A DNA stretch of 64,000 nucleotides from an uncultured Chitinophagaceae bacterium (GTDB lineage Bacteria; Bacteroidota; Bacteroidia; Chitinophagales; Chitinophagaceae): positions 2,660 through 66,659 of the forward strand of contig CAIKTE010000180.1 of the NCBI GenBank assembly GCA_903830285.1, given 5' to 3'. Position numbers and translations under genes: made by a program. Below are positions 2,891-45,822 of this stretch, in pieces (within the stretch, counting starts at the first letter, position 1; every line of letters starts with the position of its first letter). Under the pieces are notes generated by a model. That model had not been told where the DNA came from. It saw only the letters and a program-made list of their open reading frames with translations, and ran no database searches.

Positions 2891-3988
2891 CTATTTTACC
2901 CAATCGGCCACAAATAAATTGGTATCGTGTCCGCCTCCGTTATTTCTATTGGATGAAAACAGTATTTTTTTGCCATCCGGGCTAAACATAGGAAATGCAT
3001 CAAACCCTTTGTCGCGGCTGATCTTTTCCAATCCCTTGCCATTGATATCGGTCAGATACATATTGAAAGGAAAGCCATATTTATATTCATGATTACTGCA
3101 GAAAATGATATTCTTTCCGTCGGGTGTAAAATTAGGTGCCCAGTTGGCCTGTTCTAAGAAAGTGATCTGGTGCTGATCTGTTCCATCGGCATTGGCAATA
3201 AATACTTCCATATGGGTTGGTGCCACCAAATTCTCTTTCAGCAAAGACTTGTAGTCATCGATCTCTTCTTTTGTTTGAGGCCTGCTGGCACGCCAAACAA
3301 TTTTCTTATCATCCGGACTAAACCAAGCGCCACCATCATATCCCAATGTATTGGTGATGCGTTTTACTTTCTCGGTCTTCATATCCATGATATACAGATC
3401 GATATCGCCATCACGAACCGAAGTAAAGATCATCTTCTTGCCATCATGCGATAAAGTACCTTCTGCATCATAGCCCTTTGTTTTGGTCAATTGTTTAATG
3501 ATCTTTCCACTTGTATCGGCTAAGAAAATATCATAACTGTCGTAGATAGGCCAGATATATTTATTGCCGTATTTAGAACGATCGGGCAATGGAGGACAGG
3601 TATCCGCTCCCAGATGTGTGGATCCGAAAATAAAATGTTTCCCATCAGGTAAGAAAAAAGAACAGGTTGTTCTTCCTTTTCCAGAACTCACCATATGGTA
3701 TTTGAAAGGATCTCCAAACTTCACAGGCATTTTCCCGATGAATAACTGATCACAATTCAATCCTTCTTTGGGATTGGTACGTTGAAAGATCACATACTTT
3801 CCATCGTAGCTCCAATAAGCTTCGGCATTGTCGCCGCCAAAAGTTAATTGCTGTATGTTTTTAAAATGCCTTTCATTGGCATACTGAACACTGTCGGTTG
3901 GGGTTGGCTGAACGGAGAACTGAACAGCGAAAGAAGATAAGATACTCAATAAAATAAAAGCGGAAACAATCAGTAAGGGTTTCTTCAT
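2891..3988 (-). CDS. TolB-like / PD40 (WD40-like) beta-propeller repeat protein, secreted
   Basis: Signal peptide MKKPLLIVSAFILLSILSSFA. Repeated motifs of the form S.DGK.I.F.S.R.G..D.Y (FSPDGKKILFSSNR, LSHDGKKMIFTSVRDGDIDLY, FSPDDKKIVW, FTPDGKNIIFCSN). Confidence 0.8.
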   Translation of the reverse strand: MKKPLLIVSAFILLSILSSFAVQFSVQPTPTDSVQYANERHFKNIQQLTFGGDNAEAYWSYDGKYVIFQRTNPKEGLNCDQLFIGKMPVKFGDPFKYHMVSSGKGRTTCSFFLPDGKHFIFGSTHLGADTCPPLPDRSKYGNKYIWPIYDSYDIFLADTSGKIIKQLTKTKGYDAEGTLSHDGKKMIFTSVRDGDIDLYIMDMKTEKVKRITNTLGYDGGAWFSPDDKKIVWRASRPQTKEEIDDYKSLLKENLVAPTHMEVFIANADGTDQHQITFLEQANWAPNFTPDGKNIIFCSNHEYKYGFPFNMYLTDINGKGLEKISRDKGFDAFPMFSPDGKKILFSSNRNNGGGHDTNLFVADWVK

Positions 3989-42966: not shown

Positions 42967-43026
42967 GAGATGAAGATAAACAAAGAATTAAACTTGAGAG
43001 TGATGTTTATGTTGTCGCTATTGAAT

Positions 43027-43057
43027 TTTATAGCATCGGTTGTTGCGTCGCACACTT
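43027..43057 (+). repeat. dispersed intergenic element, copy C (lacks the 22-nt double mini-hairpin core)
   Basis: TTTATAGCATC-ggttg-TTGCGTCG|CACACTT. Both flanks of copies A and B are present and directly abutted. Confidence 0.75.
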
Positions 43058-43312
43058 TTACTCCATAGCCTTGTGCCGCGGAGTACTTCAAGGTTCAGTT
43101 TTATAGCAACAAAATGAATGAAATGCTTGGAGGATTGTTGTAACGACAATACAAAAAACGCAACGTTATAACACTGATTTTAAATATTATTTTTTGACCT
43201 TCATGCATACTAAAGCATAAATTTTGGAGTGTTGGCTATAATTTAAAAAATAACATTGATTGTTGGGTAACTTTATAGACCAATATTTCTTTTCCATATA
43301 AATCCTAGATTT

Positions 43313-44044
43313 ATGAAACCAAATTTTTTACTTTTCATCATAGTTTTATTTGGTTTGAACTGTAAAAAGGACGCTTCAATAAACACTTTAACAGTAAGAG
43401 GGCATGTACTAAGCGAAATAACAAATAAACCATTCCCTAATTCCAAAGTTTTTATTACAGTGTATAAAACAGTATATTTTGGTTATATGCCTTTAACTGC
43501 TTCGATTGATCATAAAAATACAATAACAGACAGTTTAGGAAACTTCACTAGTGATATTATTATAGATAATGACTCTTCTACTGTAATAAGGTTTGAAAAA
43601 ATTGCAGATAAACAATCAGGTGATCTTGTTAAAAATGCTGAATTTAGTTTTTTATTATTTAGGCAAAACCCAATTACCAATTTATATGTTAGACAATATG
43701 CAGACCTAATAATAAACCTGAAAAATGTTATCCCATTTGACAATAATGATCAAGTAAGCATTTCATATTTTGTGACTGGTTCTTCTTTATCACATGACCC
43801 TGTTGATTCTGTAATAAATTATGGGTTAATAAATCAGCCATATTTACCACCAGCTTATAATGATGGTAAAAATCTTTTTTGGATTGGCAAAGATGTGAAT
43901 TCGACAATTGCAATAAAAGTTCAAGAAAGTACTACATTTCAAATTTTTTGGACAGCTAAAAAAAACAATATTATCACAAGCTATAAATCACAAATATTCA
44001 ATACTTCGATCAATAGTGTAAATAAGTTTGAAATTAACTATTAA
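43313..44044 (+). CDS. hypothetical lipoprotein
   Basis: MKPNFLLFIIVLFGLNC lipobox. The N-terminus (VRGHVLSEITNKPFPNSKVFI) resembles a carboxypeptidase-regulatory-like fold start. Visibly more AT-rich than its neighbours. Confidence 0.6.
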   Translation: MKPNFLLFIIVLFGLNCKKDASINTLTVRGHVLSEITNKPFPNSKVFITVYKTVYFGYMPLTASIDHKNTITDSLGNFTSDIIIDNDSSTVIRFEKIADKQSGDLVKNAEFSFLLFRQNPITNLYVRQYADLIINLKNVIPFDNNDQVSISYFVTGSSLSHDPVDSVINYGLINQPYLPPAYNDGKNLFWIGKDVNSTIAIKVQESTTFQIFWTAKKNNIITSYKSQIFNTSINSVNKFEINY

Positions 44045-44251
44045 AATTTTTTACTATCACTATCAGTGTATTTTAGTAATTGTAGCTTGACGGTAGTTAG
44101 TGAGATTTTGTTCCAACTCAATTGAAATATAAGACCCAACAAAATAATTTATCAATAATAAAACACAGTTCCGCTCCCTTCATCTCATTTCCACGACTAC
44201 TTAAATGCGACCTTTTATCGGAGTCTTCTAGATTATATAAAAAAAACTATC

Positions 44252-44581
44252 ATGAATCCTTTTTTTCATTCTGAATATTTTTCAGTTTCCCAAAAGAGTG
44301 TCCAACACTCAACGATGAGTGTTGAAGTCTCAACCACGAGTATTTTAGTCTCATCTCCGAGTATCGGAGTCTCATCCTTAAGTGTTTTTGTGTCAACGAT
44401 GTGTGTCAAACACTCAACATTGAGTATCAGAGTGTCTCCGTTGAGTATAAAACACTCATCGATGAGTATTGGAGACACAAATTTGTCAGTCAGAGCCTCA
44501 TCCTTGAGTATCAGACACTCAACTCTGAGTGTAAAACTGACAAGATTGCAGAAATCAGTAATGCCTATCAATTTAGCCTAG
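44252..44581 (+). other. 109-codon ORF spanning the 21-bp repeat array; coding status unresolved
   Basis: Ser-rich heptads S-[VI]-x-[VH]-S-[ST]-[LM] x12. The opposite strand (44266..44571) and a second + frame are open over the same DNA, so openness alone is not evidence of coding. Confidence 0.3.
44296..44547. repeat. 12 x 21-bp tandem array, consensus GAGTRT-N5-RNCTCA-WCNNT, no indels
   Basis: GAGT (or a one-mismatch variant) at 44296, 44317, 44338, 44359, 44380, 44401, 44422, 44443, 44464, (44485), 44506 and 44527. CTCA sits at unit positions 13-16. Junctions form ACTCA-N4-TGAGT dyads. Confidence 0.95.
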
Positions 44582-44610
44582 TTGGGGCTAAAGCCGGAAG
44601 CCCTTTCATT

Positions 44611-44652
44611 GAATTGCCCCGAACTTAAGTTTGGGGCAATTCAGTTTTGATG
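44611..44652 (+). terminator. 32-bp near-perfect palindrome GAATTGCCCCGAACTTAAGTTTGGGGCAATTC followed by AGTTTTG (candidate + strand terminator)
   Basis: The only mismatch is G/T. This is a G.U pair on the + strand transcript but an A/C mismatch on the - strand transcript. Confidence 0.5.
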
Positions 44653-44668
44653 CTATCCCTTAAATACA

Positions 44669-44701
44669 AATCCTCCGAGGTTTTAAAAACCTCGGAGGAT
44701 T
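44669..44701 (-). terminator. 33-bp perfect palindrome (AATCCTCCGAGGTTTT-A-AAAACCTCGGAGGATT) downstream of mrp/apbC
   Basis: Perfect dyad starting 24 nt after the 44725 stop. Confidence 0.65.
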
Positions 44702-44724
44702 GTTATACAAAAAGATATCACATG

Positions 44725-45822
44725 TTAATTCACTATTTCCAGCACTTTTGTCTTAGGAATATTTGCATTTCTAATAGCAATATTTCTAACCGCCAGGGAA
44801 GCAAAATTTCTAAAAGCATTTTGCGTAACGGCATCATCACCTACCATGGCAGGAACGCCGCCATCACCTCCTTCTCGGATGCTTTGCACCAAAGGGATTT
44901 GTCCAAGGAAAGGCAATTCATATTCTTCGGCTAAATTCTTTCCGCCTTCTTTTCCGAACAAATAATATTTATTATCGGGCAATTCTGCCGGCGTGAAATA
45001 AGCCATATTTTCTACCAATCCGATGATGGGCACATTGATCTGCGCCTGAGCAAACATGGCAATAGCTTTCTTTGCATCGGCCAATGCTACAGTTTGAGGA
45101 GTAGTAACCACAACAGCACCTGTTACCGGAACAGTTTGTATCAATGTTAAATGAATATCGCCTGTGCCCGGTGGCATATCTATGATCAAATAGTCCAGTT
45201 CGCCCCAATCTACTTCCGTTACAAATTGACGGATGGCACTGCTGGCCATCGGCCCGCGCCAAACCACCGCATTTTTTTCGTCCACCAATAATCCGATACT
45301 CATTAATTTGATACCGAATTTTTCTATTGGAACGATAAAAGCTTTGCCATCTACTTCCTTCATCAAAGGCCTTTCGCCACGAATACCGAACATGATGGGT
45401 ACACTGGGCCCATAAATATCCGCATCCATCAATCCCACACTAGCACCTCCTTCGGCCAATGCCAAAGCCAGGTTAGCTGCAACAGTACTTTTACCCACGC
45501 CGCCTTTGCCACTCACCACAGCTATAATATTTTTTACGCCATTCAATACCAGTTGACCATCTTTTCTGTTGCTAGAAGTATTGGCGGTAAAATTCACCTG
45601 TACAATAGCGGCTTTATTTACCAGTATTTTAATGGCATTCTCACAGGCAGAACGCATCATATCCTTCATAGGACATGCAGGAGTGGTCAAAACAAGCGTA
45701 AAGCTTACCGTATTGCCGTCAATGGCAATATCCTTGATCATATTCAATGTAACCAGATCTTTTCCCAGATCAGGTTCCTGTACATTACTCAGCGCTTTGA
45801 GTATTTCGGCTTCAGTCATCAT
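44725..45822 (-). CDS. apbC: Mrp/NBP35 family iron-sulfur cluster carrier ATPase (ApbC)
   Basis: N-terminal MIP18-like domain (ILKALSNVQEPDLGKDLVTLNMI), deviant Walker A SGKGGVGKST, DMPPGTGD. The CxxC-equivalent region is replaced by MAYF..., as in many Bacteroidota. Confidence 0.9.
   Translation of the reverse strand: MMTEAEILKALSNVQEPDLGKDLVTLNMIKDIAIDGNTVSFTLVLTTPACPMKDMMRSACENAIKILVNKAAIVQVNFTANTSSNRKDGQLVLNGVKNIIAVVSGKGGVGKSTVAANLALALAEGGASVGLMDADIYGPSVPIMFGIRGERPLMKEVDGKAFIVPIEKFGIKLMSIGLLVDEKNAVVWRGPMASSAIRQFVTEVDWGELDYLIIDMPPGTGDIHLTLIQTVPVTGAVVVTTPQTVALADAKKAIAMFAQAQINVPIIGLVENMAYFTPAELPDNKYYLFGKEGGKNLAEEYELPFLGQIPLVQSIREGGDGGVPAMVGDDAVTQNAFRNFASLAVRNIAIRNANIPKTKVLEIVN

Follow-up and report, generated by a model that had tools for sequence, protein, structure and literature searches.

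We noticed an array of 12 contiguous 21-bp units, 252 bp long and parsed from the sequence with zero indels, in a 64-kb stretch of DNA (here called the window, meaning its full length) from a Chitinophagaceae metagenome-assembled genome (MAG), contig CAIKTE010000180.1. The array lies at positions 44296 to 44547, between a lipoprotein-like open reading frame (ORF) and the mrp gene. It is real, noncoding, strictly phased, and accessory, and it is a member of a family. The array does not stand alone: when one genome per species was scanned for exact runs of three consecutive GAGT/CTCA units, at least 120 loci turned up in other genomes, mostly of cyanobacteria, where a chance expectation of about 1 match applies (20 specified bases, 1.2e12 positions). 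The finding therefore goes beyond a local oddity, to a cross-phylum family of noncoding, exactly phased arrays that, as far as sequence comparison can tell, are under selection. We tentatively read the window array, with rather less than even confidence, as a platform of duplex DNA whose dyad sites, spaced by two helical turns, would serve cooperative protein binding.

A family of strictly phased 21-bp arrays

The consensus unit of the window lineage is GAGTRT-NNN-ASW-CTCA-WC-NN-T (by position, G1 A2 G3 T4 R5 T6 N N N A10 S11 W12 C13 T14 C15 A16 W C18 N N T21), and each unit is an imperfect 17-bp palindrome, TGAGTRT-N3-AYACTCA, plus a 4-bp linker. Nine of the 12 units have an exact GAGT, two have one mismatch (AAGT at 44380 and GTGT at 44401), and the most deviant site is GTCA at 44485; CTCA is exact at unit positions 13 to 16 in 8 of 12. 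Conservation extends beyond these tetramers to A10 (11/12), S11 (12/12), C18, and T21, which a preliminary description of this DNA had overlooked, and with these positions counted in, each half-site is 7 bp long (TGAGTRT/AYACTCA). ACTCA-N4-TGAGT dyads occur at 44307, 44412, 44454, and 44517. The pattern GAGT-N8-CTCA-N5-GAGT, with up to one mismatch allowed, has 10 matches in the window, all of them within the array, whereas shuffled sequences are expected to give 0.14. The other 63.7 kb of the window has no further copy of the palindrome except one match with two mismatches, which is within chance expectation. Because the units are on average just 61% alike, Tandem Repeats Finder detected only two pieces of the array, with a period of 21. 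The 12 indel-free units, the dyads, and the 680-bp gap (the lipoprotein ORF ends at 44044 and mrp at 44725) are thus as they had first been described. The off-consensus units 10 and 12 form a 13-bp inverted repeat, which is invariant or nearly so in all three orthologous arrays described below.

About 90 loci among the matches listed are stand-alone arrays of 8 to 28 units. Most are in Nostocales and other filamentous cyanobacteria, with many arrays per Nostocales genome, often at contig ends; others are in Bacteroidota (L028 Flavobacteriales, L044 Ekhidna, L057 Aquimarina, L061 Paludibacter, and L084 Chitinophagaceae) and one is in Verrucomicrobia (L078). The oriented family consensus is GAGTATCAAAGACTCRTYNAC. 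We define the family by at least 8 contiguous 21-bp units matching GAGTNTNAAASACTC-N6, an intergenic location, and no off-phase spacing, all of which apply to the window array. The window units GAGTATCAGACACTC, GAGTGTCAAACACTC, and GAGTATAAAACACTC fit the family consensus, which was built mainly from Nostocales, and GAGTATAAAACACTC is found verbatim in L028 and, as printed, on the opposite strand in the Aquimarina array L057. The same two arrays share identical 15-mers with the window, on the opposite strand in L057.

A phase-independent scan of 74 oriented arrays with a position weight matrix gave 662 unit spacings, all of them multiples of 21 (601 at 21 and 48 at 42), with not one off-phase spacing even over degenerate units. 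The unit number has a median of 12 (interquartile range of 11 to 14, n = 65 arrays, with the lower tail bounded by the filter of at least 8 units), and it ranges from 10 to 13 within one Nostoc locus group. The information profile shows two conserved blocks of 4 to 7 bp, 11 bp apart, and a poorly conserved linker; between the blocks, A10 is conserved in both lineages, as are A8 to A10 in the cyanobacterial arrays. The unit is a true 21-mer without a 7-nt subperiod, as its three heptamers are unrelated; only L012 (Phycisphaerae) is a heptamer run. The flanking-gene context of 53 arrays is tandem in 37, convergent in 14, and divergent in 2, and a binomial estimate for 2 or fewer divergent cases at p = 0.25 is about 4e-5, with crude ORF-based gene calls. 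Orientation relative to the neighboring genes is not fixed (20 sense versus 11 antisense).

The window array had no match in plasmid and phage collections, and a Nostoc array matched two cyanobacterial plasmids only, in unannotated DNA. The literature, searched without most subscription journals, held no description of this 21-bp array, and the core 14- and 15-mers, in both orientations and as DNA and RNA, were unmatched in it. The repeat family common to filamentous cyanobacteria and Bacteroidota is seemingly undescribed, and horizontal spread appears to have carried it among filamentous cyanobacteria, Bacteroidota, and a small number of other phyla.

Two variations on the theme were seen. 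Some Nostoc arrays (L018, L032, L069, L080, L085, L093, L102, and L122) are bracketed by inverted runs of G-rich/C-rich heptamers, for example, (GGGGAAT)n ... (ATTCCCC)n; if the nucleic acid were single stranded, these runs would pair into a long stem enclosing the array. The array of the Chitinophagaceae MAG L084 (2571 to 2844, minus-strand coordinates) has a different unit, GAGTCCAATGGTCTCATTGGA, and its variable segments are mutually complementary (CCAATG/CATTGG), so that GAG and CTC fall within the loops of alternative hairpins.

Conservation, reading frames, and locus of the window array

Two arrays, L128 with 12 units and L165 with 11, are orthologous to that of the window, and a metagenome scan for further orthologues gave two more only, both of the L128 type. 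The units of the window and L128 align one to one with 86.9% identity and no internal indel, and L165, in which exactly the first unit is missing, has 86.1% identity to the window array and 93.5% to L128. Divergence among the three arrays is 6.5 to 13.9%, compared with 27 to 36% at the 4-fold-degenerate sites of mrp, which means that the arrays diverge 2 to 4 times more slowly. The flanks, 60 to 70 bp on each side, have 55 to 82% identity with gaps, and in the three orthologues, the share of variable columns is 22% outside the core positions versus 11% inside. On the strength of these alignments, the window array is under purifying selection at the nucleotide level, and it looks like an old array that kept its phase and half-sites while the interiors of its units drifted. 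The preliminary description had allowed for a neutral minisatellite, with copy number varying at random and no conserved half-sites, or for coding sequence whose protein homologue would explain the periodicity. The copy number is 11 or 12 and the half-sites are conserved, so that by the measure of that description, the unit-by-unit conservation with kept phase and half-sites argues against a neutral minisatellite, and no coding homologue was found that would explain the 21-bp periodicity.

Two ORFs cross the array, and either the 109-aa plus-strand ORF (LSIRHST-like) or the 101-aa minus-strand ORF (ExxILxx-like) could be thought to encode a small heptad-repeat protein. The 21-bp period is divisible by 3, two frames are open in 49 and 57 of the 74 oriented family arrays, genes are sometimes called on arrays, and in phage contigs, short EYDELKR-type heptad repeats that show this GAGT/CTCA pattern are indeed coding. 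The evidence against a protein is nevertheless extensive. Among the window, L128, and L165, the ratio of nonsynonymous to synonymous polymorphism (pN/pS) is 0.5 to 1.8 across the six frames of the array, compared with 0.00 to 0.02 for the adjacent mrp; it is 0.6 to 0.7 for the plus-strand ORF, whose pS is far below that of mrp, and 0.6 to 1.3 for the minus-strand ORF. In L128, the former is interrupted by two in-frame stops and the latter, as read from the sequence, has no usable start codon. The differences between the window and its orthologues are spread evenly over codon positions (30 to 36% each), and the conservation of the array has no 3-base periodicity. In 531 family units that were not chosen by the search pattern, G1, A10 (96%), and C13, the would-be wobble positions of both open frames, are among the best-conserved bases. 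No frame is open in 7 of the 74 arrays, and ORFs across arrays seldom reach past the array ends. The plus-strand ORF has zero homologues in a set of 5.8 billion clustered proteins, no family in Pfam, NCBIfam, or PHROGs matches either ORF, and gene callers annotated nothing in the gap of the near-identical contigs L001 and L002. A coding role is thus extremely improbable and is effectively excluded.

Public gene calls of 87 to 154 aa lie wholly over the arrays of L165 (154 aa, 3103 to 3567), L167 (3658 to 3921), and L170 (1982 to 2248), the latter two being of 87 to 88 aa; these are probably spurious "hypothetical proteins," that is, annotation artifacts. In the viral contigs L131 to L143 (IMG/VR), GAGT/CTCA runs of 3 to 4 units, mostly in-frame EYDELK[RK], are found inside larger ORFs and seem to be genuine coding repeats that have no relation to the arrays. 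One of these contigs, L139 (227 kb), has an 8-unit array, GAGTCCAACGTACTCACCCAC.

The surroundings of the array had been taken for a housekeeping context. The mrp gene is indeed a housekeeping Mrp/NBP35 gene that is present also in relatives without the array, but the array itself sits in an accessory segment. Homology between the window and its relatives L125, L126, and L130 breaks off at 44723 and is found again from 42992. In these three and in P0024, whose Mrp proteins are 98%, 95%, and 92% identical to that of the window, the mrp-paiB gap is 123 to 235 bp long and has no array, so the array is, on this comparison, dispensable in close relatives. In L128, L129, L154, and L161 (Mrp differing by 1 aa), the array and the terminator occupy the gap without the lipoprotein gene, and in L165, a DMP19-like gene takes the place of the lipoprotein gene in front of the 11-unit array. 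The site thus occurs in four states: it is empty, or it holds the array alone, the array preceded by the lipoprotein gene, or the array preceded by the DMP19-like gene. The cargo genes, though different, always lie between paiB and the array. Among close relatives, the mrp-paiB intergenic site is a hot spot of insertion or replacement, and the array with its terminator forms the recurring core of this variable site. Neither a target-site duplication nor a clean insertion boundary can be seen at the window locus. The lipoprotein-like ORF has zero family matches in Pfam, NCBIfam, and PHROGs.

The coordinates of all features are given in Table 1. The hairpin 3' of the array resembles an intrinsic terminator and, by its sequence, would act on plus-strand transcripts that cross the array. 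One plus-strand pair of its stem (44611 to 44642) is G-C in L165, G.U in the window, and A.C in L128, which indicates that the hairpin drifts on both arms with no clear strand preference. The cumulative GC skew peaks near 36 to 40 kb, positive before and negative after, a weak signal that is confounded by gene orientation and covers 64 kb only.

Table 1. Features of the array locus (window coordinates)
Feature	Position	Strand	Basis or remark
Phased array, 12 contiguous 21-bp units	44296..44547	none	Direct reading in 21-bp register from 44296
Best single dyad site, TGAGTATAAAACACTCA	44442..44458	none	Perfect match to 17-bp palindrome
Second perfect 17-bp palindrome site	44505..44521	none	Palindrome scan
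Left arm (CAAATTTGTCAGT) of 13-bp inverted repeat, off-consensus units 10 and 12	44478..44490	none	Pairs with 44536-44548 in consensus fold
Right arm (ACTGACAAGATTG) of 13-bp inverted repeat	44536..44548	none	Consensus fold
Small stem-loop, TTTAGCC-N7-GGCTAAA	44572..44592	+	Between array and terminator; in L165, not clearly in L128
Terminator-like GC-rich hairpin, GAATTGCCCCGAAC-TTAA-GTTTGGGGCAATTC then CAGTTTTG	44611..44650	+	87.5% conserved in orthologues
Variable (accessory) segment, paiB-like to mrp	42992..44723	none	Contains lipoprotein gene, array, terminators
Lipoprotein-like ORF, 243 aa	43313..44044	+	Upstream of array; cargo
109-aa ORF, heptad [LM]S[VI]x[VH]S[ST]	44252..44581	+	Repeat by-product, not a gene
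101-aa antisense ORF, heptad E-x-x-[IT]-L-x-x	44266..44571	-	Repeat by-product

Linked protein gene and nature of the arrays

An all-against-all comparison of flanking ORFs showed that the sole specific recurrent neighbor of the arrays is the gene of an approximately 158-aa protein with an invariant KMGDK motif. Its stop codon adjoins the array at 10 loci found by the pattern search, 9 of them cyanobacterial and the other one Flavobacteriales L028, whose version of the protein is 33% identical. Sampling from the protein side added 3 further proteins of the family at 7 loci (P0208 in the PCC 7120-like L167; P0196 in Nostoc sp. L169 and L171 and in N. punctiforme CP001037, L170; and P0234 in Chlorogloeopsis L173 to L175), with an array of 11 to 14 units at or just past the stop codon wherever the contig extends; the L171 contig ends two units in. 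In N. punctiforme (CP001037.1), the gene spans 526,706 to 527,182 and the array about 527,180 to 527,440. The genes around the pair vary between loci. The protein family has more than 1,700 members, all annotated as "hypothetical," and the protein has no match in Pfam, NCBIfam, PHROG, PADLOC, or the PDB, nor does any defense-system model match it. Read-through or recoding of the gene into the array was considered and rejected, as the open frame is 0 at some loci and +1 at others. By analogy with sopB-sopC and parB-parS, in which a protein gene is paired with its array or site, the 158-aa protein is the best candidate binding partner of the arrays. Upstream of the gene and array in several Nostocales (L019, L023, L067, and L169 to L172), there is a conserved pair of genes for an 84-aa protein and an HNH endonuclease of about 147 aa. 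HicAB and a NACHT-HEAT STAND protein are often near the 158-aa gene, which gives the neighborhood a conflict-system flavor.

The conservation pattern bears on whether the arrays act as DNA or RNA. Among the would-be stem pairs of 917 units, there are 133 G.U, 155 A.C, and 395 other mismatches, and unit positions 5 and 11 are not complementary. RNAalifold gave the three orthologues a covariation term of +6.1, which is a penalty, and neither base-pair covariation nor strand bias was found in the arrays. Taken together, the missing compensatory signal, the exact two-turn period, the independence of orientation, and the conservation in blocks favor recognition of duplex DNA by a dyad-symmetric protein, and the preference of the preliminary description for protein recognition over an RNA stem, given G.U counts close to A.C counts and the covariation penalty, stands as the best-fitting reading. 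In the mechanism that we envisage, a dimeric, dyad-symmetric, sequence-specific protein would bind each 17-bp palindrome. Sites exactly 21 bp apart, i.e., two turns of B-DNA, would all face the same side of the helix, so that a cooperative assembly of about 12 dimers could form a single nucleoprotein complex with a length of about 250 bp. The anchored copy of the family would be the one that starts at the stop codon of the 158-aa gene, and the window array would be a "satellite" member. The complex might serve organization, insulation, silencing, or propagation of the element itself.

Alternatively, the array might be transcribed, either as the 3' untranslated region (UTR) of the upstream gene or as a small RNA of its own ending at the terminator-like hairpin, and serve an RNA-binding protein as multisite sponge or scaffold, for example, or give the transcript a structured 3' end by which it is stabilized or terminated. 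We consider this rather unlikely, with several observations in its favor. The arrays are nearly always 3' of at least one gene, and gene-linked arrays begin at the stop codon and hence lie within the mRNA. The plus-strand hairpin with its T-run is kept in L128 and L165, and in L128 no other plus-strand gene needs it; the 13-bp inverted repeat within the array is conserved as well. Both strands fold far better than shuffled sequences (z scores of -7.7 and -8.4), but palindromic repeats give such folding energies automatically. The mismatches are mostly nonwobble, hairpins or sponge sites need no exact, indel-free 21-nt period, and the orientation of the arrays to genes flips even among the gene-linked ones (L111 and L028 versus Nostoc). 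Of 59 arrays, only 15 are followed by a terminator when read in one orientation and 9 when read in the other, an inconsistency that rules against an independent small RNA gene. Rfam 15 had 0 matches in the whole window at the gathering threshold, and the region had only subthreshold chance matches at an E value of ≤10.

A selfish or merely structural nature of the arrays is distinctly unlikely in our view. The arrays would then be minisatellite-like or intergenic repeats of the BOX, repetitive extragenic palindrome (REP), or short tandemly repeated repetitive (STRR) kind, without a dedicated host function, spreading inside a genome and from one genome to another and tolerated only away from promoters, and their sequence constraint would come from the element's own amplification or mobilization machinery. 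The four states of the window locus amount to presence/absence polymorphism, arrays are numerous in Nostocales genomes and depleted in divergent regions, inverted heptamer runs flank some of them, and changes are by whole units (11 versus 12 among the orthologues and 10 to 13 in the Nostoc group). The patchy distribution over Cyanobacteria, Bacteroidota, and Beggiatoaceae is like that of the TAACTGA heptamer repeats (PMC4679880). Against this, the orthologues keep the positional identity of their units and diverge more slowly than 4-fold sites and than their own flanks, old arrays with 61% unit identity keep perfect phase and half-sites, the size distribution is narrow, and the link to one protein gene is kept across phyla while the neighbors change. 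There is also no consistent transposase or REP-associated tyrosine transposase (RAYT) nearby and no target-site duplication or clean boundary. An IS200-like Y1 transposase (RAYT-like, Pfam PF01797) is encoded at 248 to 853 of L028, about 1.2 kb from the array, and near no other array, so we rejected a RAYT/REP relationship. A miniature inverted-repeat transposable element was rejected likewise, as flanking inverted repeats are strong in just 4 of 61 arrays and no target duplication is visible at the window locus.

Several points weigh against the duplex-DNA platform. The low-confidence, all-helical AlphaFold model of the 158-aa protein (predicted local distance difference test score of 53) allows no DNA-binding fold to be claimed; its gene is not in the 64-kb window, and a profile search found no remote homologues in the window or, apart from L028, at other Bacteroidota loci. 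Isolated dyad sites were not found outside the array within the window. Part of the slower divergence of the array could be due to recombination between lineages and not to selection. The avoidance of divergent promoter regions (2 of 53) equally fits 3' UTR elements and selfish repeats. The start of gene-linked arrays at a stop codon, which puts them in mRNA, keeps an RNA role viable, and both the plus-strand terminator 3' of the window array and the internal 13-bp inverted repeat are conserved in the window lineage. Finally, the family sample is dominated by related Nostocales and was chosen by the GAGT/CTCA pattern.

A more far-reaching, and doubtful, extension of the platform reading is that the arrays and the 158-aa protein form a hitherto unrecognized two-part system. 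The protein would coat its own gene-linked array and, in trans, satellite arrays, and the resulting 250-bp bodies would serve chromosome organization or segregation or act as barriers to transcription or supercoiling, the whole having moved horizontally between multicellular cyanobacteria and Bacteroidota. If the family is what it seems to be, it represents a widespread cis element under selection that has an exact ruler of two helical turns, favors a size of about 12 units, and has a candidate partner protein, and it would help to approach the exchange of short repeats that has long been noted between cyanobacteria and Bacteroidota. Arrays are present in the model organisms Anabaena PCC 7120 and Nostoc punctiforme, in which the element is directly testable.

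Comparison with known systems

ToxI, the RNA of type III toxin-antitoxin systems, has a repeat unit of 36 nt, compared with 21 nt here, and no ToxN-like gene flanks the window array. Extragenic palindromes are also familiar from enterobacteria as clusters of REP sequences and bacterial interspersed mosaic elements (BIMEs). Pneumococcal BOX elements are extragenic and consist of modular tandem units (PMC3184786). The arrays resemble both in being extragenic, palindromic, modular with a variable unit number, multicopy in some genomes, and biased to the 3' ends of genes, as the 37 tandem and 14 convergent contexts show. They differ in having units half as long, an exact period, a sequence shared across phyla, no stem covariation, and no RAYT association, the Y1 transposase near L028 being the only one. 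TAACTGA repeats occur intergenically in Cyanobacteria, Bacteroidetes, and Beggiatoaceae, upstream of start codons and in a fixed orientation (PMC4679880). The arrays share with these and with the STRR heptamers of cyanobacteria the intergenic location and the same odd phylogenetic distribution, and heptamer runs sometimes flank them, but they are dyad-symmetric 21-mers that are independent of orientation, and their unit is not 7 nt long.

The half-sites TGAGT and ACTCA are also those of the Escherichia coli SlmA site, GTGAGTACTCAC; SlmA, a gammaproteobacterial protein of the helix-turn-helix type, binds there as a dimer and spreads on DNA. SlmA half-sites abut, and the sites are single and dispersed, whereas those of the array are N7 or N4 apart and in tandem. 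Iterons are direct repeats of 17 to 22 bp in helical phase beside a rep gene, with DnaA boxes and an AT-rich unwinding region. The array is of the same length class and is helically phased, but it lacks the rep gene, the DnaA boxes, and the unwinding region and is missing in relatives whose Mrp is 92 to 98% identical.

Ribbon-helix-helix proteins bind centromeres and operators such as the ACTC tetramer boxes of TP228 parH, the tandem 20-bp repeats of pSK41 parC, the phased 11-bp repeats of R1 parC, and the heptad arrays of the omega protein. The arrays are similar to these centromeres and operators in having GAGT/ACTC half-sites, both direct and inverted, at about one per helical turn over 100 to 250 bp, a layout that implies cooperative coating of one face of the DNA. 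Their spacing, however, alternates between 11 and 10 bp instead of being 8, 7, or 11 bp, they have no parF/parG or parM/parR genes, and the ACTC motif common to them and TP228 parH may be a coincidence. The resemblance to plasmid iterons and centromeres pointed out in the preliminary description therefore does not amount to membership, because no par or rep gene is adjacent, the arrays are chromosomal and multicopy, and the window array appears dispensable. The phased tandem repeats with dyad half-sites of a partition centromere are present (12 units in the window and 662 in-phase spacings in the family), but the neighbors in the window are the lipoprotein-like ORF and mrp rather than a partition operon, and no ParA-like neighbor recurs in the approximately 90 loci among the matches listed. 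The F plasmid centromere sopC consists of about 12 tandem 43-bp units, each with an inverted repeat, directly after sopB. As in sopC and P1 parS, the arrays of the window family have about 12 tandem units with an inverted repeat, and the gene-linked ones lie directly 3' of a small protein gene. In contrast to sopC, the unit is 21 bp, there is no adjacent ParA/ParB, and the arrays are chromosomal, multicopy in Nostocales, and absent from close relatives of the window organism. If the family is what it seems to be, they would be a chromosomal, multicopy counterpart to the centromere-like arrays of plasmids.

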